From positions 757 through 64,756 of the forward strand of contig WJJI01000014.1 of assembly GCA_014729795.1 (NCBI GenBank): a DNA stretch of 64,000 bases, in the 5' to 3' direction. Shown here piece by piece: positions 821-23,804 of the stretch. The stretch is from Candidatus Moraniibacteriota bacterium (lineage in GTDB: Bacteria; Patescibacteriota; Minisyncoccia; CAIUEV01; JAHKAQ01). A model generated the notes under the pieces. That model made no database searches, was not told the origin of the DNA, and saw only the letters and a program-made list of their open reading frames with translations. Both the position numbers and the translations under genes were made by a program. Position 1 is the first letter of the stretch. Each line of letters starts with the position of its first letter.

Positions 821-2270
821 AAAACAAGAATTGACATCAGTGGCGCTAACTCGCAAATGTTTGGCCCGGATTGAAAAATACGAAAAAGCCCCGTATAAAG
901 TTAATGCAATCATTACCGTAAACAAAGAACAGGCGCTTGAACAGGCTCGAAAAAGCGACCAAAAAAGGAAAAACAACCAGAAACTTGGAGAGCTGGAAGG
1001 CATTCCTATTGCCGTGAAAGACGTAATCGCCACTCGGGGCTTAAGAACCACGGCCGCGTCCAAAATTTTGGATAATTTTATCCCAACTTACGATGCCACT
1101 GTGGTTAAAAATTTAAAAAAACAAGGCGCTGTCATTATTGCTAAAACCAATTGTGATGAGTTTGCTCACGGCGCTAGCGGGGAAAACTCTGCTTACGGGC
1201 CAACCAAAAATCCTTATGACCTGGAACGAGTCGCGGGCGGTAGCTCTTCGGGATCGGGCGCGATCGTGGTTTACGGTGGCGCTCTGGGCGCCGTGGGAAC
1301 CGATACCGGCGGCTCGGTCCGAGCTCCGGCCAGCTTCATGAATCTTGTCGGCGTTAAACCAAATTACGGTCGTACCTCCAGATACGGATTGCTAGCCATG
1401 AGTTCTTCAACCGACGTGGTTTCTCCTATTGCTCAAAACTGTTCGGACGCAGCTTTAATGCTTAAAGCCATGAGCGCCAAAGATCCCAAAGACTCAACCT
1501 CAGCCGGATTTGCCGGCAAAAGTTTTGATCGAGAATTTAACAAACCGCTGAAAAATTATAAATTCGCCTATCCAAAACAAGTTTATCAAAAAGGTCTTGA
1601 TCCCGAGATAAAAACTATTTTTATGCAAGGCTTAGAGCTTTTAAAATCACAAGGCGCTCAAATCCAGGAAATCGATATTCAAACCTTTGGCGAGCCGGCC
1701 GTGGCTGCCTATTATATTTTAGTTCCAAGCGAGATTAGCTCCAACCTAGCTCGCTACGATGGTATTAAATACGGCATGACCGCGAAACAAGCAAAAAATC
1801 TGGAACAGGTTTACACTCAAAGTCGCAGTCAATACCTTGGCCAAGAAACCAAACGCCGGGTCATGCTGGGCAATTTTGCCTTAAGTGCCGGTTATTATGA
1901 TGCCTATTACAAAAAAGCTCAGCAGGTTAGAGCTAAAATTAAACATAATGCCGGTAAAATATTTGCCAAATACGACCTTATTTTAACCCCAACCATGGCC
2001 TCAGCCGCTTTTAAAATGGGCGCTAAAAACGATCCGCTGAGCATGTATTTAGCCGATGTTTATGTGAATTACGCCAGCTTAGCCGGATTACCGGCTCTTT
2101 CCATTAATGCTGGTTGGCTAAAAAACAACCCCAAACAAGCCATTGTTGATCAAAAAGCTTTACCGGTCGGACTACAAATGGTAAGTAATTGGTGGGATGA
2201 GGAAAACTTATTGGGCGCGGCTTATCAATTTGAAAAGCTTATCGCGCTTCAGCAAACAGTTGCTCGCTAA
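783..2270 (+). CDS. gatA: Glutamyl-tRNA(Gln) amidotransferase subunit A
   Basis: Amidase signature [11 protein letters not shown]...[14 protein letters not shown], and an N-terminus typical of GatA. Overlaps the upstream gene by 38 bp. Confidence 0.9.
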
Positions 2271-2310
2271 AATTTAAACTTTAAGATCAGCGGAGCTGCT
2301 CTTATTTGGC

Positions 2311-2339
2311 TTTACTAAAATCCGGGTTTTTGTTATAAT
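2311..2339 (+). promoter_or_regulatory. Putative sigma70-type promoter for the dacA-like/mraY transcription unit
   Basis: TTTACT (2311-2316), a 17-nt spacer, then TATAAT (2334-2339), about 150 bp upstream of the ORF at 2491. Confidence 0.3.
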
Positions 2340-2490
2340 TTTAAGACAATCAAGGCTAATTTAGCCTACCGCATTAATATGGATTACTAAGTGAATAAAT
2401 CCTAGATTAAGTTATAGATCAATGATTCATCCAAGCAAAATAATCATTTGGCTAATAAAGCCGGTTTTAAAATAACTAAACAAAAAAACA

Positions 2491-3453
2491 ATGCTTATTT
2501 TAATTTTGGTAATTCTTTTATTTCTGGGCAATCAGCCGGAAAAACCGGCGCAAAATCAGGAGTTAGGCGGAGGGCCTATTCAGGAGCAAGCTTCTTTGCA
2601 AGAGATCGTCCAAGAAGAACAAACCCTTGAATTGCCTAAATTTGAAAAAACCCCTCAATTGGTTGAAAATCCCCAAGCCGATCCGGTTTTGCCTTTTACC
2701 CACGCGGCTCTCGTTATGGAAGCAGATTCGGGCAAAATTTTGTTTAGCAAAAACGAAACCCGGAAAATGCCTATTGCTAGTTTAACCAAAATCATGACCG
2801 CTATTGTGGTTGCTGAAAATGTTCAAGACTGGAAAGCCGATGTTAACATTAGTAAAAAAGCCGCCTTTGCCGGCGGCGCCGCGGTGCGGTTAAAATGGGA
2901 TGAATACGTGGACGCCGATCAATTATTCAAAGCCATGCTTATGAATTCGGACAATGGCGCCGCCATCGCTCTGGCCGAACACGTGACCGGCTCCACCGAG
3001 GAATTCGCCAAGTTAATGAATCAACGGGCTAAAGAGTTGGGCGCTAACGATACTTTATTTACCGAACCTTCTGGTTTAGAGGATCAAAGAGCCTATTCAA
3101 CCGCTTATGATATCGCTTTAATTGCCAGAGAGGCTATCAAAAATCCCTTAATTACTCAACCCATGTTGATTAAAGGTCCGGTACAAATAAATTCTTGTGA
3201 CGGAGCCATTACTCATCGGGTTGGCAACACTAATTTATTTGTCAAAGACGAGGAATTCCTACGGCTTGCTCATCGAGTCGTTGGCGGCAAAACCGGCTTT
3301 ACATACGAAGCCGGATACTGTTTAATGGAAGCCATGGAAGATCAAGCCGGTCAACGAAAAGCCATCGGCATCATCTTAAACAGCGACAAAACCATGCGTT
3401 GGTACGAAATGGAGGAGATGATTGAATGGAGTTTTAACAACTACGAATGGTAA
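2491..3453 (+). CDS. D-alanyl-D-alanine carboxypeptidase (serine-type, low-MW PBP, S11 family)
   Basis: N-terminal signal/TM segment. SxxK (SLTKIMTA), SxN (MNSDNGAA) and KTG (GGKTGFT) motifs are in the correct order. Confidence 0.8.
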   Translation: MLILILVILLFLGNQPEKPAQNQELGGGPIQEQASLQEIVQEEQTLELPKFEKTPQLVENPQADPVLPFTHAALVMEADSGKILFSKNETRKMPIASLTKIMTAIVVAENVQDWKADVNISKKAAFAGGAAVRLKWDEYVDADQLFKAMLMNSDNGAAIALAEHVTGSTEEFAKLMNQRAKELGANDTLFTEPSGLEDQRAYSTAYDIALIAREAIKNPLITQPMLIKGPVQINSCDGAITHRVGNTNLFVKDEEFLRLAHRVVGGKTGFTYEAGYCLMEAMEDQAGQRKAIGIILNSDKTMRWYEMEEMIEWSFNNYEW

Positions 3454-4555
3454 TCGGTTAATCTCTTTGACCATGCAATTTGCTCAAATTTTTACAGTTC
3501 CCCTGTACGTGGATATTTTCAAAGTGCTTTTACTGGGCTTAATCGCTTTTTTGACCGCGCTTTTATGGACTCCTTTCTTGGCCGATTTCCTCTACAAGCA
3601 TTTTAAAACCAAAACCAAAACCCAAACCATCAGTGGCGAAAAGGCGCCGATTACCAAATCCTTAACCAAAGGCAAAGAAGGCACGCCGCTTATGGGCGGA
3701 TTGTTAGTGTGGGTAACCGCTCTTTTTCTGGGTTTGTTAATCTTAGGCTTAGCCAAGCTTTTTCCTCAAAGTTTTTTAAACGAACTCACCTTTTTTTCTC
3801 GCTCTCAAACCTGGCTGCCTTTTTTTGCTTTAACAGCAACCGGCATAATTGGTTTATTCGATGACTACTATTCAACCAGAGGCTTAGGCCGGAACAAGGG
3901 CGGGGGCATTAGTTTTAAATTCCGCTTGGCTTGGCTTTTTGTCATCGCGTTAGCCGGTGGACTATGGTTTCATTTTAAGCTAGACTATACCGACATTCAC
4001 ATCCCTGGCTTTGGCGATCTGGAAGTTGGTTTTTTATACATTTTGTATTTTATTTTGGTAATCGTGGCCACGGCTTTTTCTTCCAACGAAACTGATGGCC
4101 TGGATGGTTTAAACGGAGGGGTTTTATTGTTTGCCTTTGGCGCCATGAGCGTAATAGCTTTTTTTACCCAAAGAATTGATTTAGCCGCTTTTTGCTCGGT
4201 TTTATGCGGCGGTCTGTTGGCTTTTTTGTGGTTTAATATTCCGCCGGCTCGTTTTTTTATGGGCGACACCGGCGCTTTTTCCCTGGGAACCACCTTGGGA
4301 GTGGTAGCAATGCTTACCAACGCATCCTTGGTTTTACCTATCATTGCTTTTATTTACGTTGTTGAATCTGCTTCGGTTTTAATTCAAATGGCCTCTAAAA
4401 AGTGGCGCGGTAAAAAAGTTTTCTTAGCCGCCCCTATTCATTATCACTTTCGAGCCAAGGGCTGGAGCGAAGCCAAAGTGGTTATGCGTTTTTGGATCGT
4501 CTCGGCCGTTATGAGCGTAATTGGTATTATTATCGGTATTTTTGGCAGCGGTTAA
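3422..4555 (+). CDS. mraY: Phospho-N-acetylmuramoyl-pentapeptide transferase
   Basis: Polytopic membrane protein with DDYYSTRGL, NETDGLDGL and MGDTGAFSLG motifs. The true start is probably the internal Met at about 3473, which would remove the 32-bp overlap with the upstream gene. Confidence 0.88.
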   Translation: MNGVLTTTNGNRLISLTMQFAQIFTVPLYVDIFKVLLLGLIAFLTALLWTPFLADFLYKHFKTKTKTQTISGEKAPITKSLTKGKEGTPLMGGLLVWVTALFLGLLILGLAKLFPQSFLNELTFFSRSQTWLPFFALTATGIIGLFDDYYSTRGLGRNKGGGISFKFRLAWLFVIALAGGLWFHFKLDYTDIHIPGFGDLEVGFLYILYFILVIVATAFSSNETDGLDGLNGGVLLFAFGAMSVIAFFTQRIDLAAFCSVLCGGLLAFLWFNIPPARFFMGDTGAFSLGTTLGVVAMLTNASLVLPIIAFIYVVESASVLIQMASKKWRGKKVFLAAPIHYHFRAKGWSEAKVVMRFWIVSAVMSVIGIIIGIFGSG

Positions 4556-4577
4556 GTCTTAATAATTTATTTTTAGC

Positions 4578-5171
4578 ATGGAATTAAAAATTCTGATCAA
4601 GGTAATTAAAAAAAATCGCAAAAAAACCTTGATCATAGCGAGTTTGATCACAATAATCGCGACTGTTGGGTATCTGATTCGACCCAAGCAATATCAAGCC
4701 ATGTTCGCTGTAACGGTGTTGCAAAAAGGGAGCGATCAAAGTTCGGACTATCAATTTGACAACTATTATTCTCAAGAAGCTATTGATACGTTTACCGATT
4801 CTTTAGAACAATGGCCCGGTAATCCCGGGTTAATCCAGACGGTTTACAAAAAAGCCGGGATTAATATAAATAATCAAGATCCTTCAAAATTAATAAAAGC
4901 CAGGAAGCTGGGCCCAGACTATCTGGAATTCCGCTTTAAGGCAAAAAGCCCCAAAAACGCTCAAGCCATAGCAAAATCATTAACCGAACAGCTCGCTTCA
5001 GAGCTAGAAAAAAGAAAAACCAACAAAAAAGTTTGGTTTTCCTTGGATGCCGGCGAACCTTATATAGAAGAAGCCCAACTCCCCATAGTAATTTTTATTC
5101 CCATTGCTGCGTTAACCGGTTTATTATTAGGCGCGACCTGGTCTATGCTTGTGTTTTATTGGCAGGACTAA
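4578..5171 (+). CDS. Small bitopic membrane protein, Wzz/PCP (polysaccharide co-polymerase)-like topology
   Basis: An N-terminal TM helix, a ~140-aa hydrophilic domain and a C-terminal TM helix (IVIFIPIAALTGLLLGATWSMLVFYW). It lies between cell-wall and glycosyltransferase genes. Confidence 0.3.
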   Translation: MELKILIKVIKKNRKKTLIIASLITIIATVGYLIRPKQYQAMFAVTVLQKGSDQSSDYQFDNYYSQEAIDTFTDSLEQWPGNPGLIQTVYKKAGININNQDPSKLIKARKLGPDYLEFRFKAKSPKNAQAIAKSLTEQLASELEKRKTNKKVWFSLDAGEPYIEEAQLPIVIFIPIAALTGLLLGATWSMLVFYWQD

Positions 5172-5274
5172 AGACATTGGTTTTTTATCGTTCAGCTAAT
5201 ACCGACCAGTTTTTCGTTTGCCTTACCAAAGAAATAATGATAAATTTTTTATTTTGTAATCCATAGTAATATTT

Positions 5275-6456
5275 ATGAGAATCGGCATTGATGCTCGGCT
5301 TTTGGATGCCAAGCTGCACAGCGGGGTAGAGGAGTATACAATTAATCTTTTAGAGTCAATCTTTAAACAGGATCGAGCAAACACGTATATCTTATTTTAT
5401 AATGCCTTTAACAAAGAGTTACCTGATTTTATCACGGCAATGGAAAAATACCCCAATGTGTTTGTAAGAAGGTTATTTTGGCCTAATAAAATTTTAAACT
5501 TTCTTTTGTTTCTGTTTAAATATCCTAAAATCGATAGACTTTTAGATGTTCCGGTTTTGTTTACTCCCAATCTTAACTTTACAGCGTGGAGCCGCGCTTG
5601 CAAGCACTTGCTTACAATTCATGATTTTTCCTTTAAGATTTTTCCTGAATTTTTTGATTTAAAACGCAAAATTTGGCATTGGTTGGTCGCTCCCAAAAAA
5701 TTAATCGAAAAAAGCGATTTGATTTTTACGGTTTCCAAAACCGGCCAACGCGACATTTTAAATTTTTTTACCAAAACCAGGCAAAAAGTATTAAAAAGCA
5801 AATTTCGAATTCTTTATCCAATTGTAGATCAGCAGCTCAAACCGGTTCAAAAACCAGGCAAACTAAAACGCGTTTTAGCCAAATATCAACTTAACCCCGG
5901 TTATTTATTGGTCTTAGGCACCTTTGAACCCCGAAAAAACCTCGGCGCTTTAATTACAGCTTACGCTTACTTGAGAAAAAAGGGACACACCCATACTAAA
6001 TTGGTAATCACCGGTAAACAAGGCTGGTTATTTAAAAAAACCCTGGATCTTATCCGGGCTTCTAAATTTAGAAATAGCATAGTGTTTACTGGCCCTATCC
6101 ATCGACAAGACCGTTCCGCTATCTATTCTGGAGCAAAATTATTTATTTTTCCTTCAATCTACGAAGGTTTTGGTTATCCTCCGCTTGAGGCTATGGCTTG
6201 CTCCACCCCGGTTATTTCTTCCCAAGCAGGCTCCTTGCCCGAAATTCTTGGCAAAAGCGCGCTTTATTTTAACCCTTTTTTTAGCAGAGAGCTGGCTCAA
6301 GCAATTATTGTGCTGCAAAAAGAAAAAGCTTACGCCAAACTTCTAATCCAAGCAGGCAAAAAAAGAGTCGCAAAATTTCAAAATAATAAATCAGGGCGGA
6401 AATTTTTAAAATTCGTCAACCAAGCCATCAACAACAGGCCCGGTCATGCTGCCTGA
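5275..6456 (+). CDS. Glycosyltransferase family 4 (GT-B fold)
   Basis: C-terminal EGFGYPPLEAMACSTPVISS motif (the E-x7-E GT4 signature) and overall GT4 layout. Confidence 0.75.
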   Translation: MRIGIDARLLDAKLHSGVEEYTINLLESIFKQDRANTYILFYNAFNKELPDFITAMEKYPNVFVRRLFWPNKILNFLLFLFKYPKIDRLLDVPVLFTPNLNFTAWSRACKHLLTIHDFSFKIFPEFFDLKRKIWHWLVAPKKLIEKSDLIFTVSKTGQRDILNFFTKTRQKVLKSKFRILYPIVDQQLKPVQKPGKLKRVLAKYQLNPGYLLVLGTFEPRKNLGALITAYAYLRKKGHTHTKLVITGKQGWLFKKTLDLIRASKFRNSIVFTGPIHRQDRSAIYSGAKLFIFPSIYEGFGYPPLEAMACSTPVISSQAGSLPEILGKSALYFNPFFSRELAQAIIVLQKEKAYAKLLIQAGKKRVAKFQNNKSGRKFLKFVNQAINNRPGHAA

Positions 6457-6464
6457 AATCCGTC

Positions 6465-6818
6465 TTAGTTTGCCTTTTTTAGCGTTACTTTGTATTGAGG
6501 CTCGTATTGAGTGTTGTTTTTATCTTTAACTTCGATATTTTTACCTTGCATTAAATTATTGATGGCCAAGTCGCTGATCATTTGTTCCATGTCTTTAATT
6601 TCCTGATTAAGCTGTTCTAGTTTTTCATAGCGCTTACCCATGTTTTGCTGAACCATGGCCTCAAATTGCTTTTTTTTGTCTCGCAAATCTTTAATTTGTT
6701 CTTCGATTTCCTGATATTCCTGCTCTTGTTTAAGGCTGTCGGTATACTCTCTCCTAATCTCCTTTTTTTCTTGCTTGAGCTCTTGTAATTCATTAAAAAC
6801 GTCCTGGATGTTTTGCAT
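6465..6818 (-). CDS. Hypothetical coiled-coil protein (E/K/Q-rich)
   Basis: 117-aa ORF with strong heptad-like charged composition. It is the last gene of the minus-strand T4SS-like operon. Confidence 0.4.
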   Translation of the reverse strand: MQNIQDVFNELQELKQEKKEIRREYTDSLKQEQEYQEIEEQIKDLRDKKKQFEAMVQQNMGKRYEKLEQLNQEIKDMEQMISDLAINNLMQGKNIEVKDKNNTQYEPQYKVTLKKAN

Positions 6819-6924
6819 AGTTTGTGATTAATAATAGAAAAATAGCGTAAAGCTTTAATAACTAGACCAAATCAATCTCAAAAAATTAAGCCGATTCGGT
6901 TTTTATCCAACGTGTTAAGATTTT

Positions 6925-7398
6925 TTATCTAAAAATCATTAAAATATTATCTAACAAATACTTAACAGCTAAATTAACCGTTACGGATGTTTTGGTTTCA
7001 GGCTTAGTTAACTCAACCAGTTCTTTATTGATTATTCGCAACAGCAAATAACCGGTCACCAAAATTATAATGCCAATTAAAGCAGAAAAAATCGTGGTTT
7101 TTGCCTCCCCGGTTTTTGAGGTGTTCCCCGCTGCTGTTAAATACTGAAACCCGCCAATCATAAACATGGCCAAACCCAAAACACCGGCCACATAAACTAC
7201 GAATTTATAGATCGCATTAATGTATTCAACCGGATCATCGATTTTATCTGTAGCGCCGCCCAAGCCAAATTCAAAAGGAACTTCCAATTTCCAACCGCTT
7301 GCTTTCGCTTGCTCGGGAGTCAAAGGAAAACAGAAAAATAGAATTATTGTTAAAAAAGACAAACAACCCCTAATTAATAAATTCAAGCTCCGTTTCAT
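6925..7398 (-). CDS. VirB2/TrbC-like pilin candidate
   Basis: Signal peptide (…TPEQAKA), then two adjacent hydrophobic helices (FVVYVAGVLGLAMFMIGGFQYL and TIFSALIGIIILVTGYLLL) separated by a short polar loop. That is the hallmark layout of T4SS pilins. It sits immediately downstream of virB4. Confidence 0.4.
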   Translation of the reverse strand: MKRSLNLLIRGCLSFLTIILFFCFPLTPEQAKASGWKLEVPFEFGLGGATDKIDDPVEYINAIYKFVVYVAGVLGLAMFMIGGFQYLTAAGNTSKTGEAKTTIFSALIGIIILVTGYLLLRIINKELVELTKPETKTSVTVNLAVKYLLDNILMIFR

Positions 7399-7404
7399 GT
7401 TTTC

Positions 7405-9231
7405 TTATTTATAGTTTCTTTGTTCGCGCATTTCTTCTTTGGCTTTGGCAATTTCAATCAGCTGCTCGGGGTTAGAAGTGATAATTTGGTCTTCGGTATA
7501 AGATGCCACCACCTTAATAGCCGCGTGTTTTAAGCCGGCGAAGAAAATTCCTTCCCCAACGCTGCTTTCCAGCAAAAGAAACTTTTCCTGATCGGTTAAA
7601 TAAAAAGTTTCTGAAATAATATCAATCGAGGAAGGGGATTGCTTCAAGAGTAACTGTAAAGATGAATTAGAAATAATCGGTTTGCCGTAGCGGGAATTTA
7701 TAAAATCGCTAACATCCTGAGTAATCGTAGTAAGTCCAGTATAATATTTTCTACACCTTTTCGCAATCTGAAACATAAAATTTCCCGCATCTTCATGCAC
7801 CATCATGATCCAAGCCTCATCTACTACCAGCAATCTTTTTTTTAGTTCGCTTCTGATTTCATTCCAAATATATTGCAAAATTAAATACATTGCCACGGGT
7901 CTCAAGATTTCTTCCATGTCACGAATATTAAACACTATTAACTGATTATTTAAACGCACGTTGGTTTTTTTGTTTAAAAAACCGGCAAAAGTGCCCTGAG
8001 TGTATTTTTCCAAACGGATAGCCAGGTCTTCTCCACCGCTCATATTGCGCAACACATCATACAAAATCGATAAAGTGGGCGGATCCTTAATCGCGTTTTC
8101 AAAATTGGCGGAATCCGGGTAAATATCTTTAACCGCGTAAGCTTCGTGAATTGCTTTGTCTAAAATCGAATCTTCTTCAGGCGTGATATTACCCAAGACG
8201 ATTTTCATTAAACCCAAAATATTTGCGACATTGCCTCTTAAAACCTCTTCCGGATCGTCTCCCGGATCAAGTTTAGGCAGGTCGAACGGGTTGATATTGT
8301 TTGCCGAGTTCAGTGAAATTTTTACAAAAGTACCGCCCACGGCATCGCACAAGTGCTTATATTCGTTTTCCGGATCAATAACAATTACTTGGATGCCAAA
8401 CATCATGGAACGCAGAACTTCCAATTTGCAAGCATAAGACTTCCCTGAACCCGATTTAGCAAAAACCACCATGTTGGCGTTTTCCATTTTAAATCGATCA
8501 AAAAGAATTAAACTGTTGTTGTGTCTGTTTATTCCGTAAAGAATGCCTTCGCTGGAGCTTAAATTAGAAGAGACAAACGGAAAAGAGGTGGAAAGCGGCG
8601 ATGTGTTTAAGTTGGTAGACGCGTCAATCTCATCATTGGCCAATGGCAAGTTGGAGGCAAAAGCTTGCTCCATCCGAAAAGCCGCTGGTTTTAAATAGAT
8701 GAGCCGCGATTCCATCAAAGCTTCAATGTTGGATTCCAGCTCGTCAATTTCTTGACGGCTTGCCCCGTAAATAGTCAAATAAACCCCAAAACGGAAAAAT
8801 CTTTCCGTGCCCTGTTGTAATCGATCCCGCAATGCTTCAATGTCCTGGATTGAGGTTTCTAACAAAGGATCTCTGATCTTACCGGCTTGAGTCTCTAAAG
8901 ACATTCTTGATTGCACTTGAGTCGCGGTTTTACGAAGCGCTTTCATAATAACATGAGTTTCAATCGGATGAATAAACATGGTGATATCCATCATTTTATC
9001 CATATTTATAATTGGAGTGAGCCAGCCCGTTTGCAGGTAACGAGGAAAGGTCACCACGAAAAGGGTTTTAACGTATCGATCCCCAACCCTTAAAAAAGTG
9101 GGCGAAACCGTGAAAGAGGCCGGCGCGATTAAATCTTTGACCGTGGCCAGGCCTTTTTGGTAAAGTTGATCAGCTGTCATCTGTTTAGGGTCTTGCTTTT
9201 TTTTCTTTTTACTTTTGAAAATCGGCAACAT
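7405..9231 (-). CDS. VirB4/TrbE/CagE-family T4SS ATPase, C-terminal ATPase part
   Basis: Walker A FAKSGSGKSY, Walker B LLVVDEAW, and conserved VirB4 C-terminal blocks. Confidence 0.85.
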   Translation of the reverse strand: MLPIFKSKKKKKQDPKQMTADQLYQKGLATVKDLIAPASFTVSPTFLRVGDRYVKTLFVVTFPRYLQTGWLTPIINMDKMMDITMFIHPIETHVIMKALRKTATQVQSRMSLETQAGKIRDPLLETSIQDIEALRDRLQQGTERFFRFGVYLTIYGASRQEIDELESNIEALMESRLIYLKPAAFRMEQAFASNLPLANDEIDASTNLNTSPLSTSFPFVSSNLSSSEGILYGINRHNNSLILFDRFKMENANMVVFAKSGSGKSYACKLEVLRSMMFGIQVIVIDPENEYKHLCDAVGGTFVKISLNSANNINPFDLPKLDPGDDPEEVLRGNVANILGLMKIVLGNITPEEDSILDKAIHEAYAVKDIYPDSANFENAIKDPPTLSILYDVLRNMSGGEDLAIRLEKYTQGTFAGFLNKKTNVRLNNQLIVFNIRDMEEILRPVAMYLILQYIWNEIRSELKKRLLVVDEAWIMMVHEDAGNFMFQIAKRCRKYYTGLTTITQDVSDFINSRYGKPIISNSSLQLLLKQSPSSIDIISETFYLTDQEKFLLLESSVGEGIFFAGLKHAAIKVVASYTEDQIITSNPEQLIEIAKAKEEMREQRNYK

Positions 9232-9241
9232 GCTTTTTTAT

Positions 9242-9952
9242 TTATCCATATAAAGAGGTATTAACCGCTAATGATTCGACCGGAGCCATGCCCGTTCTTT
9301 CCACCGGATCTGGATTATAAAGAGAATAATACAACTCGATTAATTCCTGGGTGTTAAGGGGAATCATGCGCACGCCCGCACCGTTTAAACCGTATTGAAC
9401 ATGCTGGGCTCGTTGATAAATTTGTTCTTTGTAAACTTCAAAATTTTTCTTGGCTTGCTTTTGAACCGCTTGTCTGGGGCTTATAATCGCGTAAATTTTT
9501 TCAGTAATCGTGCTTTTTTGATTTTCGCTTGGAGAAAAAGGCACCACAATGTAAAAGTTCTTATTCACAATATCGCTCATAGTGCTAATATTGGTGATGT
9601 ATTTAATATAGTCTTGCATTTGCAATCGCAGTAATTCGTTAGGCTGTTCACGCGATAAGGTTTTTAAACTATTAACATAATTTGTTAAATTGACTTTTCG
9701 AGAACTGATGAAAATTTGAACCGGAAAATCAAGCGAATTAAGAAAATTTTGATAATAAGCCACAATCGCGTCTTGCTCTTCGCTTGATTTAAGATCAAAA
9801 TTAATCGAGGAAACCATCAAAACCATTCGCATACTGCCGTTTTTTAAGATCACTACCCCGTCTTTGATTTCTTCAATATCTAAAAATTGCTGGGTGCTTG
9901 CAGCTTTATTTTTCTGCTTAATAAGTTTTTTAGAATGAAGACTTTCCGGCAT
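9242..9952 (-). CDS. VirB4 N-terminal domain encoded as a separate ORF (split or frameshifted virB4)
   Basis: FLDIEEIKDGVVILKNGSMRMVLMVSSINFDLKSSEEQDAIVAYYQNFLNSLDFPVQIF matches the conserved N-terminal block of VirB4/TrsE/PrgJ-type proteins. The ORF stops 11 bp upstream of the ATPase ORF start and is in a different frame. Confidence 0.6.
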   Translation of the reverse strand: MPESLHSKKLIKQKNKAASTQQFLDIEEIKDGVVILKNGSMRMVLMVSSINFDLKSSEEQDAIVAYYQNFLNSLDFPVQIFISSRKVNLTNYVNSLKTLSREQPNELLRLQMQDYIKYITNISTMSDIVNKNFYIVVPFSPSENQKSTITEKIYAIISPRQAVQKQAKKNFEVYKEQIYQRAQHVQYGLNGAGVRMIPLNTQELIELYYSLYNPDPVERTGMAPVESLAVNTSLYG

Positions 9953-9976
9953 TTGTGTTTGTGTTTATTTTAGCAA

Positions 9977-10669
9977 TTAAACCAAAGCGCTAAAATCTAT
10001 ATTTTGATTGGTATTATAGCTTTTATTGGCAATTTGTTGGGGATCGGACCCGGGTTTTTTATTGGGATTGGCTGGTTGAGCGGCGTTTGGGGCGTTTGGC
10101 TGGGGTGATTGTTTCTGGCCGACTTGGTTTTTTTTGTTGGATGTTGGTTGCGCGACAACGCCTCTTATTAAAGGAGCATCAATCGACTGGCGTTGGTTGA
10201 AATCTTTAGGCAGATTGCTTTGCACCGGCCGGGTTTGTTTAACGGAAGTAAGCGGATTAGCTGGAAATCCTTGCTTTCCATTCGTGTCTAGCACCCGGGA
10301 AAGCCGCCTTACCTGATCCTCCGGAAATTGTTTTTTTACCAGCACCATCTCTTTTTTTTCTTTCTTGGGCTGATGTTTTTTAAATTGACTCTTGCCTCGT
10401 TTCCAAACATAGGTTCTGTTTTTTGTTAAATAGAGACCTAAATTGGCTAAAAAAACAATCATCGGTTGTCCATAAGGTCTGACAAAAGCAAGAATCGCCG
10501 ACAATCCAAGCACAATCACCGCGATAGCGACAAACAAAGCCATCTCTACAAATTGATAAACCACAAACAATATTCCGCAACCGCCCAATATCCAAAGAAA
10601 CTGCTTCCATGTTAGTGGCCCGACAATAGTATCCTCGATATCGACATTTTGGGGAACTTTAAAACGCAT
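9977..10669 (-). CDS. PrgI/VirB3-like small T4SS membrane protein with a Q/P/N-rich C-terminal tail
   Basis: The N-terminus MRFKVPQNVDIEDTIVGPLTWKQFLWILGG, followed by two TM helices, resembles PrgI-family proteins found upstream of VirB4 in monoderm T4SSs. The C-terminal ~100 aa are low-complexity. Confidence 0.45.
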   Translation of the reverse strand: MRFKVPQNVDIEDTIVGPLTWKQFLWILGGCGILFVVYQFVEMALFVAIAVIVLGLSAILAFVRPYGQPMIVFLANLGLYLTKNRTYVWKRGKSQFKKHQPKKEKKEMVLVKKQFPEDQVRRLSRVLDTNGKQGFPANPLTSVKQTRPVQSNLPKDFNQRQSIDAPLIRGVVAQPTSNKKNQVGQKQSPQPNAPNAAQPANPNKKPGSDPQQIANKSYNTNQNIDFSALV

Positions 10670-10830
10670 AGATTATCATTAGTTTAAATTACGAAATTCA
10701 AGGTTTTTCCTTTAAAACCCTGCCAAAAATGGAAACGTCCTTAGTCGCAAACCCTGTATCCTAATATCATAACCTTAAATTTAAACACTTAAGCTCTTAT
10801 ATTGTAACCGATAAACAAGAACTTTCAAAA

Positions 10831-12165
10831 TTATTCCCGGATGTCTTTTTCAAATATTACTTCGCCCCGGCTTTGAGATATGGTCAAAGGCGCGTTTTCA
10901 TCATAAGAAAGCACAATTTGAGCTAATTTGTTTAAATCCTCTTGGTCAATAGTTTGGACATTGGATGATTTGTGCAAAAAGTCTCGTTGATCTTCTTCGG
11001 TATGGTGAGAAACCCCGTAACGATTACGATAATCCAAAATCCAGTTTTGAATGGTTGGCGGGACTGTGCCGGGTTGGCCTAACCGGTAAAGTGGTTTTTT
11101 GGTGATAAGTTGATCAGCCACCTTGGGAATGGTTTTTAAAGCGTCCTTAATTGGCATCTTGACCAGGTCTTTTTCATTTGCTGGAGGAGCTTGCGCGACA
11201 GCGGGTTGGTTCAAGTCTTTTTTGGCTTGTTCTAAAGTCGGACTTTTTTTAACAACTGGTTTTGATTGAGCAACAGCAGATTCCGGACCGGGTTGCTGTT
11301 GTTGGGTCTGGACGCTTTGATTCTTTGAGTACCGGGGTTGAGCTGCTGGAGTTTGGGTTTGGGCAGGCGTCGGCGCTTGATCTTGTATTATACCCTGTAC
11401 CTCCTGTTGAACCGGCATTTTAAATTTCGGTTTGGCCGGAGGCTGGGGCTGAGGCACTGGTTTTGGCTGCCAAGCCGGTTTAATATCTTGAGGTTGGATT
11501 TCGGCTCTTTCCTCCTCTTGTTCTTCTGAGTCAATTTCTTGAGCAATCCTGGATAAGTTTTTAGCCAACTGCAGCGCTTCCTTAAGGGAGGGTAACTTAA
11601 GGTATTCAAATGCCAAAAAAAGTTTTTTCAAGGCTTGCTTATAGTCATCGCTTATTCCTTGAGCGTTGGGGCTGTTAGCTAAAAAACGAACAATCGCCAT
11701 TTCATCATCTTGTTTTTCCATGCCATAAGCTTCGGTGTAATGTCTTAACCAATTACCAATGGTAGCGTTTTTTTGAGCGCCATTCTTAAAAATCAATTGA
11801 TTATCAGCCAATTTTTGTTCATTTTCCAACAAAGCCCGCAATATTAATTGTAAATAGTTAAGCCAAGGAGCGCTTGGAATGCTCATGCGTAAGCGTTCCA
11901 ACAGCTTTTCCAAATCAGAGCTTTTATCCACCAAAGGCAACAAAAAATGATCGCGCAACATTTCCAGTTGCTCATTCTGGGTCAAAGTGGGTAATAAAAC
12001 CCATCTGATTTTCAGTTTAGCCTCTTCTATCCAGTCTGGATCCAAGTCTTTTAAATTTTCCGGATTTGAAAAAAACTCCTCCAGTTCCTGAGCCTCATCA
12101 AGGTTTTGACCCGACCAGGCTCGATATAACTTTAATTTTAATTGGTTAAAATCTTGTTTGTTCAT
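10831..12165 (-). CDS. Hypothetical protein with a central P/Q-rich linker (T4SS operon member)
   Basis: 444-aa ORF with an ordered N-terminal ~220 aa, a PQPQPPAKPK…QTQTPAAQP linker and an ordered C-terminal ~120 aa. No motif recognised. Confidence 0.5.
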   Translation of the reverse strand: MNKQDFNQLKLKLYRAWSGQNLDEAQELEEFFSNPENLKDLDPDWIEEAKLKIRWVLLPTLTQNEQLEMLRDHFLLPLVDKSSDLEKLLERLRMSIPSAPWLNYLQLILRALLENEQKLADNQLIFKNGAQKNATIGNWLRHYTEAYGMEKQDDEMAIVRFLANSPNAQGISDDYKQALKKLFLAFEYLKLPSLKEALQLAKNLSRIAQEIDSEEQEEERAEIQPQDIKPAWQPKPVPQPQPPAKPKFKMPVQQEVQGIIQDQAPTPAQTQTPAAQPRYSKNQSVQTQQQQPGPESAVAQSKPVVKKSPTLEQAKKDLNQPAVAQAPPANEKDLVKMPIKDALKTIPKVADQLITKKPLYRLGQPGTVPPTIQNWILDYRNRYGVSHHTEEDQRDFLHKSSNVQTIDQEDLNKLAQIVLSYDENAPLTISQSRGEVIFEKDIRE

Positions 12166-12196
12166 ATCAAATAATTGTTTATTGAAAAACTAATCA

Positions 12197-14734
12197 TCAA
12201 AATGGCCCGCTTCCGGATTTCTGCCGGCTTATTAAAACTTGATTAATGGTTTCGGTTATTTTCTTCACTTGATCCCTATCCAAATTGTTATCACTCTTCA
12301 AATCCCTGACTTTTTGCTTCATGGCGTTTGCCACCGCGTCAGAAATATTAAAAGCGCTGTTTTGAAAGCCTTGAGTATCCATTCTCTTAATAAGATGCTC
12401 AAAAACCACTCTATCATTTATATGTTGGGGTTTTAAGCTTCTGGCCAAACCTCGGTTGTTCATGCTTTGTATTTCACTTATTACAAACTCTTGTTGTTCT
12501 TTCGGCTCAGCCAAACGCAACTCTTTTGTTATAGGGTCAATTCGAGTTAACCCGGCATGATAAAAATCGTCATTGGCCATAGCCGTAGCGCTTAAATCGC
12601 TGGCAAGTCTTCTTTGCTGACGACTATCGCTAAATTCTGTTTCCAAAAATTTCTTTATGCCATCGGCGTCGTCTTTGCGGCCGAGAGCGCTTAAAAATGG
12701 CTTGATCGCGCCCATGCTCCAAGCCATACGCGTTAAGGCTTCCTTCTGATTTTCGTTGGTTGTGCCTTGATAAGCTTGAATCAATTGTTCAGGGGTGCGA
12801 ACCCCGCTTTGCTTGTATTTTTCTGTTTCGTTGGCCACCTCGACTTCTCTTGGTCGGTCGTAATTAACAGCTTCTCTAAAATGATTTTTCCAAACAGCTT
12901 TTCTGGCGTTTTTAATTGCTTCTTTGTCTTTGTTTTCATTAAGCTCGCCAGCTTCACTAAGTTTTTCCTTTAAAACTTGGTTGGCATGTTCTTTGTCAGT
13001 AATTCTAAGTTCGTTTCCTTGTTTTTGGCTTTTTTTGTCAGCAATTCTAAGTTCGTTTCCTTGTTTTTGGCTTTCGAGCTCTTGAATTTGTTTTTCAAGA
13101 GCTTCTCTGTCATTATTAGCTTTTTTTCTTGCTTTTTCATCTTCGATCTCCTTTATTTCTTTTTCCAGTTGTTCGTTTTCACCTTCGATCTCCTTTATTT
13201 CTTCCTCGTTGTTTTTTATTTCCTTATTCGCATTGTCTCTTTTTTGGTTTCTTTGGTTTTGTTCTATTTCCTCGGCTCTTTTTTTGGCGCCTCTATCAAA
13301 AAAGGCACTGGCTCCGGTAAGGGTCTTTTCAATAGCCTCCGTATCTTCTTCTCTCATCGCATGTTTGGTGCGATTTATTTTTTCCTTCACAAGCCTACCA
13401 GTATTAACGGGATCTAAAAAAGCCGAAGCTAATTTTAGGCCTCCGCCAACTTTTTGCAATCCTTTTCCCGCCAAATTTCTTACCTTTTTTTCACTTTCAG
13501 ACATTTTTTTGCCTTTATTCTCAATCACGCCTCCAAGTTTTCTCGCGGCTACTTTTGTCAGACCGGCCACTCCAAGTCCGGTCAACGCCGCTGCTCCCGC
13601 TGTTGAGAGCTTCATGGCCATGCCAGCGCCGGCTGCGCCCATAACCCCGGCCATGTAAACCGAGCCAATCAAAAGCACCATAGCGAATATTAAATAAATC
13701 CAGGTATTATAAGAATTAATATGATTTTCGGCTTTAGAAGTATGCTCTGCCCCATCAATTTGGCTGGCAATATTCGAGATGCTATCGCCTCCCTCCGAAG
13801 GAATGATGGTAAGAACCTCAGCGCTAAACCAAAGGAAAAAAAGCATCAAAGGGCCCATAAAAGCATATTTCAAAAAAGCGCTCCACCATTTACTGGCCAT
13901 GCCTTGGGTGTCGGGCAATATCATGCCCACGTAAGCCAAAGGAGAAACAACAATCAAAACCCAAATAGCCACGGTTCTAACAATTAAAAGCATGGCCACA
14001 GAACCAATTACAAAGGTGGCTAAAAACACAAACGCCACAGTTAAAACCGGGCCGATTGCTGTCGCAACAATTTCAACTAAATCGTCAGCGCTCAAAATTT
14101 TTAATATAATATCTGCCGTTGCCTTCCATTTCAAAGCCAATAAATTCCAGATCGTTTCTCTGAGTTTTGCTATGGGGTTTCCAAAAATGTTACCAAACAT
14201 GATAACATGGGTAAAATCCAAAACTATACCGGCAAACACCCGGCTAAAATTGGTTAAAAAAGCCAAGATCACCAATCGCACCAACAGCTTCTTGTAACTA
14301 TATTTTTCCACGCGAAAAATCGTACCCACTCCAATAAACAATAAAGCCACGATAAAGCCCATATCCGCGATTAAAGTCACTATGTTATGAGCCTTGATAA
14401 TGGTTTCATTGCTGGCAAAACCGCCGAGTTCCATATAAAAATCCGGATTGAAAAAGTCTTCAATCATATTAGAAGCAACAAGAAAGAAAATCCAAGCGAC
14501 AAACTGAAGCATTGTTGCTATAACTATCATAAAGCCCACCGGAAGCTTAATAAAAATAAAAGAAAAGAATTCCCAACCCGCATTGGTTAACCCTTTTAAA
14601 AGCTGATCTATCCAACCTGCTTGAGTCGGTTCTGGCGCCATCAGAAAAAAAACAACTGCAATTATTAACCCCAGCAAAGTTAAATATTTCCAATTATTTT
14701 TATTGCTTATTTTGTTTTTGATTTTTTCAATCAT
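12197..14734 (-). CDS. VirB6/TrbL-like polytopic T4SS membrane protein with a long C-terminal coiled-coil tail
   Basis: The N-terminal ~480 aa hold at least 8 TM helices. The C-terminal ~350 aa are charged coiled-coil with in-frame tandem duplications. Position and topology match VirB6-like proteins such as TcpH and PrgH. Confidence 0.4.
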   Translation of the reverse strand: MIEKIKNKISNKNNWKYLTLLGLIIAVVFFLMAPEPTQAGWIDQLLKGLTNAGWEFFSFIFIKLPVGFMIVIATMLQFVAWIFFLVASNMIEDFFNPDFYMELGGFASNETIIKAHNIVTLIADMGFIVALLFIGVGTIFRVEKYSYKKLLVRLVILAFLTNFSRVFAGIVLDFTHVIMFGNIFGNPIAKLRETIWNLLALKWKATADIILKILSADDLVEIVATAIGPVLTVAFVFLATFVIGSVAMLLIVRTVAIWVLIVVSPLAYVGMILPDTQGMASKWWSAFLKYAFMGPLMLFFLWFSAEVLTIIPSEGGDSISNIASQIDGAEHTSKAENHINSYNTWIYLIFAMVLLIGSVYMAGVMGAAGAGMAMKLSTAGAAALTGLGVAGLTKVAARKLGGVIENKGKKMSESEKKVRNLAGKGLQKVGGGLKLASAFLDPVNTGRLVKEKINRTKHAMREEDTEAIEKTLTGASAFFDRGAKKRAEEIEQNQRNQKRDNANKEIKNNEEEIKEIEGENEQLEKEIKEIEDEKARKKANNDREALEKQIQELESQKQGNELRIADKKSQKQGNELRITDKEHANQVLKEKLSEAGELNENKDKEAIKNARKAVWKNHFREAVNYDRPREVEVANETEKYKQSGVRTPEQLIQAYQGTTNENQKEALTRMAWSMGAIKPFLSALGRKDDADGIKKFLETEFSDSRQQRRLASDLSATAMANDDFYHAGLTRIDPITKELRLAEPKEQQEFVISEIQSMNNRGLARSLKPQHINDRVVFEHLIKRMDTQGFQNSAFNISDAVANAMKQKVRDLKSDNNLDRDQVKKITETINQVLISRQKSGSGPF
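12993..13202. repeat. Two pairs of in-frame 42-bp tandem duplications inside the VirB6-like gene
   Basis: The 40-nt unit ttgtcag(t/c)aattctaagttcgtttccttgtttttggcttt occurs at 12993-13032 and 13035-13074. The 20-nt unit cttcgatctcctttatttct occurs at 13141-13160 and 13183-13202. Both have a 42-bp period (14 aa). Confidence 0.8.
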
Positions 14735-14735
14735 T

Positions 14736-15236
14736 TTAATTGGCTTGTTTTAATTTGGCTCTTAAGCGTTGAATCTGGGCGGTTAATTTTTGCGACTTTT
14801 CCACAATTTCTTGAGACCGTTCAAGGTTTTTTTCAGATTGTTTTTTTGAAGAGCGCCAGGCAAGTAAAACCATAATTGTTGTAATCGGAGTAATGCCATC
14901 CAAAAAAGGAATAAAAGCCGCGATTAAATCTATTATTATGGGAAGAATTATCCTTAAAAATTTTTTCCAAAGATGCCTTCTCCAACCCATTTGCCACCAT
15001 ATCGGTATAGCAACAAACAGAAATTTTATTATCGGGGAAATACCCACATCCAAGGGGGGAGGCAAAAGGTCGGTAAATTCTGACATAACTGCGAACATCA
15101 AGGCGATTATAAAGATAGTATCGTTATACTGTTGGGCCTTGTCGAATAGTTTTTTCGCTTTTGCTTCAAGTTTCTTTTGAACCGATTGGTTACGCAATAT
15201 CAATTTCAGAATTCTTTGGTTTGTTGGGACAGCCAT
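14736..15236 (-). CDS. Small integral membrane protein (3 predicted TM helices), T4SS operon member
   Basis: 166-aa ORF with hydrophobic segments IFIIALMFAVM, ISPIIKFLFVAIPIWW and ILPIIIDLIAAFIPFL. Its stop abuts the VirB6-like start. Confidence 0.5.
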   Translation of the reverse strand: MAVPTNQRILKLILRNQSVQKKLEAKAKKLFDKAQQYNDTIFIIALMFAVMSEFTDLLPPPLDVGISPIIKFLFVAIPIWWQMGWRRHLWKKFLRIILPIIIDLIAAFIPFLDGITPITTIMVLLAWRSSKKQSEKNLERSQEIVEKSQKLTAQIQRLRAKLKQAN

Positions 15237-15261
15237 TTTTAAAATCAGCGCTTACTTTATT

Positions 15262-17292
15262 TTAAAAAATACTATTATTATCAACTTTTTGCCAGTTTCG
15301 CCCGTTTTGTGAAGTGGCTGAAAAAATTGTCCACACCGCTCCGTCAAAACCCGCGTACCACATTCGATATGGCCCTCCGGCTTCGCCGGCTAAACCGTCT
15401 TGGTCTTCAGTTACAACCATTGGGCCTACTACCTGAACATTATCCCCATCTCCTCTTTCGCCTACATCCAGTACGACCTCGCCCGGAGGAAAGGAACTCG
15501 GTGTTGGAGATTGGGTGTAAAAAATACGCCACGTTGCTCCATCATACCCACTATACCACATATGATACATTTTATAAATCGGTTGACAACGTTCAATGCA
15601 GCACTGTTCATTAAACTTTCTTTCTAAAATAACCGAAGGAGCGGATACATACACGCTGTCCTTGGCGTCTTTATTGGAGTTGGGTTCTAGCGCGATTTGA
15701 TGGCTGGAGCTGTCTGACCACCACAAAGGATCAACGCTCTTGGCGTGGTATATTCTCCAGGTCGCCCCATCAAATCCACTGTACCACATATGATACATTC
15801 GAAATGTTTCAAAACAAATCTCTACATATTGGTTGCAAATACATTGCGAATCAATATCTGCCACCATAGCCGGGCTGTCAACATGAACATGGGGCTTAGA
15901 AGCTTGATTTTCGCCACTTACGTCAATTTGCAAGCGCCCTCGACTTTTGTCCCAGGTATAAGTGTCCATGCTGGTGGCTCCAAAAATGCGCCAAGCTGCC
16001 CCCGCTTGCAGAGTATAACCGCTGTAATACATAATATAATCATTTTGAACCTCTGTCTCTCCTTGCTGCTGTCGCACTTCTCTTTGAGTAAAAACCCAGG
16101 GATTAGCTGTGTGGATAAAATCCAAGAATCCTTTCGGCGAATTGGGTACGCGGCCATTGGTGCCGACCAAACTCCGCTCGGGTACGCTGTTATCAACTTT
16201 GCTTAAATTATCGGCATTGCTTGCTTCAGCCATGTAAATCCTCCAGTTTGCGGAGTTATAACCGGGATACCAAAGCTTATACTGGTTGGAGTTTTGAGGA
16301 TATATAGCAGCCGGACCATCGGGGGAATTTACGTGTTCTCCGGCGGCCAAGCCGGTTGAGCCACCCCCTACATAGGTTTGGTCGCCTTTGCCTTTTGTTC
16401 CAAGCACGATCCTCCCGCCACCGGAACTGCTGTCGCTCCGATTGATGCCGCCATCGCCTGTTTCTTCTAAATCGCCGCCATTATCCAAGCCATCAAAAGG
16501 AGATTCGGAATAATCGGCCAAAAAATCAGAAGTATCGAGCTGATTTAAATCAACCTGATTGTCCTTATCCTGCCTGTCTGCGTCCGAATCATCAAAAACA
16601 CTGTCGGTTTCGCCTGAATCATTAGCTTGGTTTGTTTCCGGCTCGGTTTCGAGAGTGTCGGAATCACCGGATTCCCGGTTTTGTCCCAATTCCGGACTCG
16701 GCTGATTGCCGGTATCTTCAGTTTGGTTTGTTTTAAGCCCGGCAAGTTCTTCAACCGCCTGTTCTTTGATTTCCCGCGCCTGGGTCAAACAAAAGACATA
16801 TTGTTCATGATCGCCCAAGTTTTCTTCGATATAATCTTGTTGAATTAGCTGTTGATCTCCGTTTTTACGATTCTCGTAATCTTCGCACCAAGATTTTGCT
16901 TCAGGATTAAGCTCGCCCAAATATTTATTGACCACCGGAGCGCCGTTTACACAAGTAACCGTCAGTCGATCTCCTTGGGAATTACAGTACATTTCTCCCG
17001 GACTTTGACTGGAGCATTCTTGGCCATGACTCATCAAAATCCAATCGCCTTCTGGTCTCATGGCGACACAATCCGGTGTAAAATCAAGGGTTTGAGCTTG
17101 ATCTTGGTTTTCTAAACCGGTTGATTCGGCTTGAGATTTTTGCGTTAATCGGGTTTGCCGCCGCGCGGTTTCAGAAACTTGAGCCAGTCCAATTAACAAA
17201 GAACCCAAAATCACTAAAATTGAGGCTACGATAAAGAAATTTTTTCTTTTATAAATAAAATTAATCAAACGATCTGAAATATTTTGGCGCAT
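15262..17292 (-). CDS. Membrane-anchored or secreted large protein with an acidic low-complexity region and five tandem beta-propeller-like (Asp-box) repeats
   Basis: N-terminal TM/signal, then a D/E/S/N/G-rich stretch, then five repeats of about 55-70 aa sharing (Y/F)xM(W)YSG(F/Y)DGAxWRI(F/Y)xAxS followed by SxDxxxW-like Asp-boxes. Repeats 3 and 4 are nearly identical. Confidence 0.6.
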   Translation of the reverse strand: MRQNISDRLINFIYKRKNFFIVASILVILGSLLIGLAQVSETARRQTRLTQKSQAESTGLENQDQAQTLDFTPDCVAMRPEGDWILMSHGQECSSQSPGEMYCNSQGDRLTVTCVNGAPVVNKYLGELNPEAKSWCEDYENRKNGDQQLIQQDYIEENLGDHEQYVFCLTQAREIKEQAVEELAGLKTNQTEDTGNQPSPELGQNRESGDSDTLETEPETNQANDSGETDSVFDDSDADRQDKDNQVDLNQLDTSDFLADYSESPFDGLDNGGDLEETGDGGINRSDSSSGGGRIVLGTKGKGDQTYVGGGSTGLAAGEHVNSPDGPAAIYPQNSNQYKLWYPGYNSANWRIYMAEASNADNLSKVDNSVPERSLVGTNGRVPNSPKGFLDFIHTANPWVFTQREVRQQQGETEVQNDYIMYYSGYTLQAGAAWRIFGATSMDTYTWDKSRGRLQIDVSGENQASKPHVHVDSPAMVADIDSQCICNQYVEICFETFRMYHMWYSGFDGATWRIYHAKSVDPLWWSDSSSHQIALEPNSNKDAKDSVYVSAPSVILERKFNEQCCIERCQPIYKMYHMWYSGYDGATWRIFYTQSPTPSSFPPGEVVLDVGERGDGDNVQVVGPMVVTEDQDGLAGEAGGPYRMWYAGFDGAVWTIFSATSQNGRNWQKVDNNSIF

Positions 17293-23792: not shown

Positions 23793-23804
23793 ATATATAT
23801 TTAT

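Follow-up and report, generated by a model that had tools for sequence, protein, structure and literature searches.

Genomic context of the two ORFs

The window, as we call the whole stretch of 64,000 nucleotides analysed here, carries on its minus strand a compact block of T4SS genes in the order PrgI/VirB3-like, TrsD-like, VirB4 and pilin, with spacers of 24, 10 and 6 nt. The block is opened by a PrgI-family (VirB3-like) membrane protein of 230 aa (9977-10669; Pfam PrgI, 37.3 bits, cut-off 27), whose residues 23-67 form a long hydrophobic stretch. Then come a TrsD-like protein of 236 aa (9242-9952, hereafter N-ORF), which stands alone and is homologous to the initial portion of the VirB4 N-terminal domain, a 10-nt spacer with the sequence ATAAAAAAGC (9232-9241), a VirB4-type ATPase of 608 aa (7405-9231, hereafter C-ORF; Pfam P-loop_TraG, 98.8 bits) and a VirB2-like T4SS pilin of 157 aa with three hydrophobic segments (6925-7398; Pfam T4SS_pilin, 35.9 bits, cut-off 26.6; NCBIfam Mbov_0395 pilin-like, E 5e-6). 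Upstream of this core and in the same orientation lies the gene of a polytopic membrane protein of 845 aa (12197-14734) with eight hydrophobic segments, for which no family match was obtained in Pfam or NCBIfam. Its position and topology make it a candidate VirB6-like channel subunit, and it is the only VirB6 candidate for a cluster in which PrgI and T4SS_pilin pass their Pfam cut-offs. All these neighbours of the ATPase gene (PrgI, pilin and membrane protein) are intact ORFs. A relaxase was not identified among the window genes examined. No Shine-Dalgarno motif precedes any gene of the operon, whose leaders, including that of the C-ORF, are all A/T-rich.

At the junction of interest the minus strand reads TAA-A-TAA-AAA-AGC-ATG. 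The N-ORF ends with the TAA at 9244-9242 and the C-ORF, which is in the +1 frame relative to it, starts with the ATG at 9231-9229. As seen in the sequence and its three-frame translation, another TAA (9240-9238), in frame with the C-ORF, stands 6 nt ahead of this ATG, so both frames are closed. The original prediction had described two adjacent ORFs of 236 and 608 aa in differing frames, and the coordinates it gave for them are borne out on the minus strand. The spacing of 11 bp that it reported is in fact 10 nt (9241-9232), and its account of the junction, accurate for the first TAA and the ATG, missed the second TAA. The A-rich patch that it had pointed out does exist and comprises an A6 run in the spacer and, just inside the C-ORF, A5 and A8 runs within a tract that encodes KSKKKKKQ (C-ORF residues 6-13); the assembly reads TAAATAAAAAAGCATG within 9190-9260. 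These internal runs encode a hydrophobic-then-Lys/Arg N-terminal tail, with its Lys-rich portion at window 9216-9193, of a kind with which the ATPase gene commonly begins in relatives. The A6 run belongs to a leader of the type usual in this operon, and the apparently slippery patch does not mark a lesion. Neither a terminator-like nor a minus-strand promoter-like site was found at the junction, and no terminator separates the four genes of the core block, in scans that were not enriched over shuffled sequences and that consequently say little.

Two complementary pieces of a VirB4 motor

The larger product shows the general traits of a VirB4, which are a Walker A motif (AKSGSGKSY, residues 258-266, window 8460-8434), a Walker B motif (LLVVDEAW, residues 467-474, window 7833-7810) and a RecA-like C-terminal domain, and ATPase activity is predicted from its sequence. 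Both motifs are intact, in agreement with the earlier assignment of the Walker A/B ATPase to this ORF. The C-ORF matches the NCBIfam profile conju_CD1110 (NF045971) at positions 169-728 of 752 (360 bits, E 2.5e-107, above the cut-off of 325) and VirB4_plasma at positions 280-893; moreover, the VirB4 C-terminal domain of PDB 4ag5 aligns to its residues 222-586 (E 1.9e-41) and residues 306-735 of TrwK align to residues 131-552. What the C-ORF does not have are the first ~170 positions of a full-length VirB4. Instead of the full-length architecture of the CD1110 family, we find a C-ORF from which profile positions 1-168 are absent and a separate N-ORF that matches positions 2-121 (E 1e-6).

The N-ORF also matches positions 91-248 of the 894 in VirB4_plasma (E 7.5e-8) and positions 10-184 of the 201 in the TrsD/TraD profile (NCBIfam NF041427; E 2.7e-7), the latter with 30.6 bits against a cut-off of 200, which makes it homologous to, but a distant relative outside of, the curated subfamily of plasmid TrsD/TraD proteins. 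The VirB4 N-terminal block that had been attributed to this ORF is therefore supported by NCBIfam profiles, although not by the local Pfam copy, where the N-ORF has no match. A profile search with the N-ORF alignment against PDB sequences gave no meaningful match, and fold comparison was needed to tie the protein to VirB4. Its homology to VirB4 and to TrsD is remote, as judged from profiles, hhalign and fold comparison. The family is large, with ~2,485 free-standing homologues, the best 120 of which all measure 221-252 aa, down to ~50% identity, and an alignment of 22 homologues contains 46 invariant columns. A database protein identical to the N-ORF carries the precomputed label PF26593, on which a literature search found nothing.

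Together, the N-ORF and the C-ORF tile the full-length VirB4 profiles conju_CD1110 and VirB4_plasma without overlap, just as expected for the complementary VirB4 pieces that had been postulated. The split does not coincide with the border between the N-terminal and C-terminal domains of VirB4 but cuts through the N-terminal one.

Conservation of the split among related loci

Related loci were retrieved by tblastn, a search blind to ORF boundaries; three came from a single-protein scan of genome contigs and the other 80 from an alignment-based metagenome scan. The ATPase start in relatives was taken as the ATG nearest to the projected residue 1, and the N-ORF bounds of one locus (L071) are unreliable. 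Wherever both parts could be located in a related locus (75 loci), they form separate ORFs that are never fused, just as in the window, and in each of these evaluable loci the TrsD-like gene directly precedes that of the ATPase (75 of 75). The geometry of the junction, on the other hand, is very variable. Frame offsets of 0, 1 and 2 occur in 18, 33 and 25 cases, respectively (75 loci plus the window), and the ORFs overlap by as much as 29 nt or lie as far as 474 nt apart, eight of the overlaps being of the 4-nt ATGA type. In 11 relatives both ORFs are in the same frame with a single stop between them, which can be any of the three stop kinds, and in two related loci a whole extra gene is inserted between the pair. 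The dN/dS values of 0.06 (N-ORF) and 0.05 (C-ORF), obtained against a 75%-identical relative for which dS is saturated, point to strong purifying selection on the two ORFs. A bona fide split gene, as outlined in the original prediction, implied two conserved proteins with an RBS each; the separate proteins are indeed conserved in related genomes, but the operon offers no Shine-Dalgarno motif for either of them.

The TrsD-VirB4 pair in Patescibacteria and Firmicutes

The literature already describes this two-gene arrangement, under the names TrsD and VirB4, for Patescibacteria, the phylum of the window (Quinonero-Coronel et al. 2025, Microb Genom, PMC12102498). T4SSs are known to be widespread in the phylum. 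That work found TrsD to be their most abundant component, usually encoded beside virB4 (1,664 of 2,272 homologues lie near it) and remotely homologous to the VirB4 N-terminus. T4SS genes were also reported as essential in Ca. Southlakia epibionticum, a TrsD homologue being listed among them. In Gracilibacteria the TrsD homologues do not adjoin virB4 (PMC12102498). The published literature gives TrsD no function (PMC12102498); TrsD is not named in the main text of Guglielmini et al. 2014, so that the statement on homology comes via PMC12102498, and the pNP40 paper holds no TrsD data. The system described there and the one in the window share the TrsD-like, VirB4, PrgI/VirB3-like and VirB2-like pilin components, with TrsD adjoining virB4. 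The N-ORF fits the broad TrsD-like sense used in that paper, as a free-standing VirB4 N-terminal homologue of ~200-250 aa next to virB4, and is a member of the same extensive family of ~230-aa proteins; no substantive difference separates the two systems. To this picture, our analysis adds the junction geometry over 75 loci, the selection estimates, the fold match and the position of the break.

The same pair is found in RefSeq Firmicutes plasmids, annotated as trsD and a VirB4-like ATPase, and homology to the window proteins was confirmed. In pLU4 of Limosilactobacillus reuteri, a trsD gene (219 aa) stands immediately upstream of a VirB4-like DUF87 ATPase (672 aa), 11 nt apart, and the two are preceded by a small conjugal transfer protein and a CagC-family pilin-like protein. 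An hhalign comparison of the N-ORF alignment with pLU4 TrsD gave a 94% probability, and the two ATPases are 27% identical (E 4e-53). This plasmid is typed as conjugative by MOB-suite, with a MobQ relaxase, in contrast with most Patescibacteria clusters, which have no relaxase. Judging from the NCBIfam name, we take TrsD/TraD and TrsE/TraE to be proteins of staphylococcal pGO1/pSK41-type and lactobacillal conjugative plasmids (MPF-FATA, pGO1 subclass). A RefSeq Pontibacillus entry also shows the split seen in the window, with a 274-aa protein overlapping a CD1110-family ATPase of 621 aa.

Lesion, recoding or bipartite gene

The original prediction left three options undecided: a sequencing or assembly indel in a homopolymer, an inactivating frameshift and a genuinely bipartite VirB4. 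An indel within an A homopolymer would have split a single virB4 gene of ~844 aa, an idea encouraged by the A-runs in the spacer and the C-ORF and by the origin of the sequence in a metagenome-assembled genome. With a stop in both frames (TAA-A-TAA), however, fusing the ORFs by one indel is impossible and at least two would be needed. The same split, moreover, recurs in independent bins and in 75 other loci with varying spacers and frames, and the Lys-rich tail encoded by the internal runs is common at the ATPase start in relatives, all of which leaves this explanation with practically no probability. A real frameshift that turned virB4 into a pseudogene within a decaying T4SS locus would suit the reduced genomes of Patescibacteria and two pieces that are out of frame. 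It is nevertheless extremely unlikely in view of the low dN/dS of both pieces, the conserved length and ends of the N-terminal piece in its homologues (lengths being those of the best 120), and the intact state of the Walker motifs and of the nearby PrgI, pilin and membrane-protein genes. It also sits badly with the occurrence of the same arrangement on a plasmid typed as conjugative and with the essential TrsD homologue reported in a cultivated relative (PMC12102498).

Two further readings were also rejected. Programmed recoding, either ribosomal frameshifting or stop read-through, could yield a fused VirB4 beside the separate products, and the A-rich junction together with the single in-frame stop of 11 relatives might be seen in this light. 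But a +1 shift before the first TAA of the window runs into the second one, and among relatives the frame offset, the spacer length (up to 474 nt) and the stop identity all vary, an extra gene separates the pair in two loci, and no conserved slippery motif appears in the upstream 25-nt listings; we regard recoding as extremely improbable too. It is also very unlikely, if slightly less remote, that the small protein arose as a paralogous copy of the VirB4 N-terminus and plays an unrelated role. The Gracilibacteria homologues located away from virB4 (PMC12102498) would favour this possibility, whereas adjacency and order are kept in 75 of 75 loci, and the ATPase is devoid of exactly what the small protein covers (CD1110 positions 1-168, VirB4_plasma positions 1-279), which makes the two proteins complementary rather than redundant. 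Altogether, the bipartite gene is the option that stands, given a split conserved in all 75 loci and dN/dS values of 0.05-0.06, while the closed frames argue against the indel and purifying selection against the inactivating frameshift. The pair is thus very probably an intact and conserved two-gene VirB4 motor of a monoderm-type (MPF-FATA-like) T4SS in Candidatus Moranbacteria (Patescibacteria).

A model for the two-gene VirB4

In fused VirB4s, it is through the N-terminal region, by way of the known VirB3-VirB4 interaction, that the ATPase hexamer is docked to VirB3 and the membrane. For the two-gene motor of the window, we propose that the PrgI/VirB3-like, TrsD-like, VirB4 and pilin genes are most likely co-transcribed, and that the 10-nt A-rich spacer most likely permits translational coupling or reinitiation. 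The upstream gene would supply the beginning of the VirB4 N-terminal domain as a separate TrsD-like polypeptide, and the downstream gene the rest of this domain with the RecA-like ATPase domain. Both products would be expected to associate non-covalently, rebuilding a VirB4 N-terminal region that would take the same docking role as in the fused proteins. A more speculative and rather unlikely extension is that the TrsD piece could be a functionally independent subunit, present at a stoichiometry of its own, for example, or serving as an interchangeable adaptor that links PrgI/VirB3 to the hexamer, and adding a regulatory step absent from fused VirB4s. This idea draws on the conservation of the split, a break inside the N-terminal domain having been kept for very long in Patescibacteria and in some Firmicutes plasmid systems.

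In practical terms, a conserved TrsD-VirB4 pair may be mistaken for a frameshifted virB4 by automated pipelines and readers alike. The T4SS locus of this genome should be read as intact, and the 236-aa "hypothetical protein" be named TrsD-like VirB4 N-terminal module, with no flag as a pseudogene fragment.

Other arrangements of VirB4

Known fused VirB4s, such as the CD1110 family of CTn2 and the Mbov_0397 family of mycoplasma ICEs among Gram-positive elements and TrwK of R388 (PDB 7o41/7o42) among Gram-negative systems, are single polypeptides, in contrast with the two of the window, where the composite reaches ~844 aa and the N-terminal piece exceeds the corresponding stretch of the fused profiles by ~50 residues. 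The SCO6880 family of actinobacterial elements (NF042935, 477 positions) gave weak collinear matches with the PrgI-like protein (positions 12-82), the N-ORF (224-289) and the C-ORF (362-476), all three with scores below the cut-off (13.8-22.9 versus 60 bits). These matches suggest that the family may represent another lineage that packages the VirB3-like and VirB4 N-terminal parts differently, with a break that would separate the N-terminal from the C-terminal domain, whereas that of the window lies within the N-terminal one.

Two adjacent ORFs encode complementary parts of a VirB4

Two ORFs of 236 aa (9242..9952) and 608 aa (7405..9231) were found on the minus strand in different frames, as the original prediction described, the second being in frame +1 relative to the first, although the spacer between them is of 10 nt (9241-9232) and not of 11 bp. 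At the junction (...GGA TAA A TAA AAA AGC ATG...), the stop of the 236-aa ORF (9244-9242) and the start of the 608-aa ORF (9231-9229) were already recognized, but a second TAA at 9240-9238, in the frame of the 608-aa ORF and two codons 5' of its ATG, had been overlooked. Both relevant frames are therefore closed and at least two indels would be needed for joining them, so that a single indel, either in the A6 run or elsewhere, cannot fuse the two ORFs.

The 608-aa protein reached 360 bits with the NCBIfam VirB4-like family CD1110 (curated cut-off 325), covering only profile positions 169-728 of 752, and positions 280-893 of 894 of the mycoplasma ICE VirB4 model (VirB4_plasma). It contains the Pfam P-loop_TraG domain and keeps both nucleotide-binding motifs intact, Walker A at residues 258-266 and Walker B at 467-474. 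Its residues 222-586 align with the crystal structure 4ag5 of a VirB4 C-terminal domain (E 1.9e-41), and its residues 131-552 align with TrwK 306-735. On the other hand, the 236-aa protein found no match in a local copy of Pfam, but covers N-terminal positions absent from the ATPase (CD1110 2-121; VirB4_plasma 91-248, both NCBIfam) and nearly the whole NCBIfam TrsD/TraD model (10-184 of 201). Because these NCBIfam scores were weak (27-31 bits), independent support was sought, and a profile of its family aligned with the annotated TrsD of the Limosilactobacillus reuteri plasmid pLU4 at 94.4% probability. Altogether, the coverage of different parts of the same two models and the pLU4 alignment indicate that the two proteins are complementary pieces of VirB4, as originally suggested. 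Since the C-terminal domain begins near residue 220 of the ATPase, the break falls inside the VirB4 N-terminal domain, away from the domain boundary.

Conservation of the split

The original prediction left three options, namely a sequencing indel, an inactivating frameshift or a genuinely bipartite VirB4, and proposed a comparison with orthologous loci. Homologues of the TrsD-like protein numbered 2,485 at E <= 0.001; the best 120 of them are all 221-252 aa long, with identities down to about 50%, and the assemblies that contain them, of many origins, belong to Moranbacteria, Parcubacteria and other Patescibacteria. Twenty-two aligned family members share 46 invariant columns, and their ends agree within a few residues with one exception. 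Moreover, among 83 related loci retrieved through pattern scans confirmed by tblastn, a procedure blind to ORF boundaries, the two parts were separate ORFs in all 75 where both could be located, and fused in none. In comparison with the closest independent relative (75% and 84% amino-acid identity for the TrsD-like protein and the ATPase), dN/dS was 0.06 and 0.05, respectively, with synonymous sites near saturation. The conserved homologue length, the 75 split loci and these ratios rule out both a sequencing indel and an inactivating frameshift of recent origin.

A conserved recoding signal is excluded by the same results together with a variable geometry: across the 75 loci and the window, frame offsets of 0, 1 and 2 occur 18, 33 and 25 times, and the upstream ORF ends in TAA (44), TGA (21) or TAG (11). 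Spacing ranges from a 29-nt overlap up to 474 nt, with eight 4-nt ATGA overlaps and frequent gaps of 1-10 nt. The split is thus not a lesion, and the genuinely bipartite VirB4 is the correct option. Consequently, the secretion operon is to be regarded as functional, and TrsD-like is the appropriate annotation for the 236-aa ORF.

The N-terminal region of fused VirB4s contacts VirB3 and the membrane. Alongside the complementarity, conservation, selection and intact motifs observed in the window pair, we infer that the PrgI/VirB3-like, TrsD-like, VirB4 and pilin genes would be co-transcribed, that the ATPase gene would be translated via coupling or reinitiation over the short A-rich spacer, and that the TrsD-like protein may bind the ATPase non-covalently, completing its N-terminal region.

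No Shine-Dalgarno motif was detected in the 30 nt upstream of any of the ten minus-strand genes of 6465-18925, whose leaders are all A/T-rich and resemble that of the ATPase gene. The A-runs inside this gene encode a hydrophobic-then-Lys/Arg N-terminal tail (MLPIFKSKKKKKQ) with the KSKKKKKQ tract at residues 6-13. Comparable tails occur in many relatives (e.g., MGLFSKKKKQKKK, MLFFKKKKKERDK, MALLDIFRKKKKEE), with a median of 4 Lys/Arg among the first 20 ATPase residues of the related loci, which supports the annotated ATG as the real start.

Known counterparts

A tblastn search of PLSDB plasmids with the TrsD-like protein gave 96 records, mostly from Firmicutes. In pLU4, which MOB-suite types as conjugative, a gene annotated as trsD (219 aa) lies directly 5' of a DUF87 ATPase gene (672 aa; 27% identity with the window ATPase, E 4e-53), as in the window, with a gap of 11 nt instead of 10. 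This trsD is preceded by genes for a small conjugal transfer protein and for a member of the CagC family. A Pontibacillus plasmid likewise encodes a small protein (274 aa) and a separate 621-aa ATPase, named CD1110 family in RefSeq (33% identity, E 2e-125), although there the genes overlap.

In this line, Quinonero-Coronel et al. (PMC12102498) reported 2,272 TrsD homologues in 2,221 assemblies of Patescibacteria, of which 1,664 occurred in association with VirB4; outside these, TrsD was limited to the pGO1 subclass of MPF-FATA. TrsD has no assigned function, and a TrsD homologue adjoining virB4 is listed there as essential in Ca. Southlakia epibionticum ML1. The gene pair of the window is therefore an already published arrangement, typical of the phylum.

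Three consecutive window genes (7405-10669) showed weak collinear matches, all below cut-off, to the actinobacterial NCBIfam SCO6880-family model of 477 positions (PrgI-like protein 12-82, TrsD-like protein 224-289, ATPase 362-476), a hint that the VirB3-like part and the entire VirB4 N-terminal domain may form one separate protein in Actinobacteria.

Neighbouring genes and junctions in relatives

The core order on the minus strand is PrgI/VirB3-like (9977-10669), TrsD-like, VirB4 and VirB2-like pilin (6925-7398). Successive genes are separated by 24, 10 and 6 nt, and no terminator-like site was found at the TrsD-like/VirB4 junction. Upstream, four consecutive minus-strand genes (10831-17292) matched no Pfam or NCBIfam family; they encode proteins of 444, 845, 166 and 676 aa with zero, 8, 3 and one (N-terminal) hydrophobic segments, and may represent divergent VirB6, VirB8 or surface components, the 845-aa protein being a plausible VirB6 analogue as judged by position and topology. 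The T4SS locus looks intact. Cell-envelope polysaccharide genes flank the block (1-6456 and 22677-25268), including GT4 glycosyltransferases, a Wzz-like protein and a Bac_transf sugar transferase, and a threonyl-tRNA synthetase gene lies at 19791-21569.

Two related loci carry a gene of 118-123 aa between trsD-like and virB4 (L010:4694-5167 and L028:1589-2023), assigned in both cases to Pfam PF05635 (23S_rRNA_IVP family; 48.6 and 92.7 bits). A 21-nt inverted repeat bounds the L010 insert, with its arms at gap positions 6-26 and 450-470, and no DNA similarity between both inserts was reported at E <= 1e-3, which suggests a small mobile cassette inserted more than once at the same junction. In another locus (L072:1525-1995), the 471-nt spacer has no ORF of note; within it, a stretch of ~210 nt (gap positions 171-381) is self-complementary, matching its reverse complement at 71% identity. 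In three more loci with a GC-richer intergenic stretch (L014, L027 and L036; 51-57% GC), the VirB4-part frame stays open about 60-100 codons further upstream; these open frames have similar starts (MDRIVFRDNKG, MGRDLIIFDRP and MSDTIVFREGE) and are N-terminal extensions of the ATPase, not a fused TrsD.
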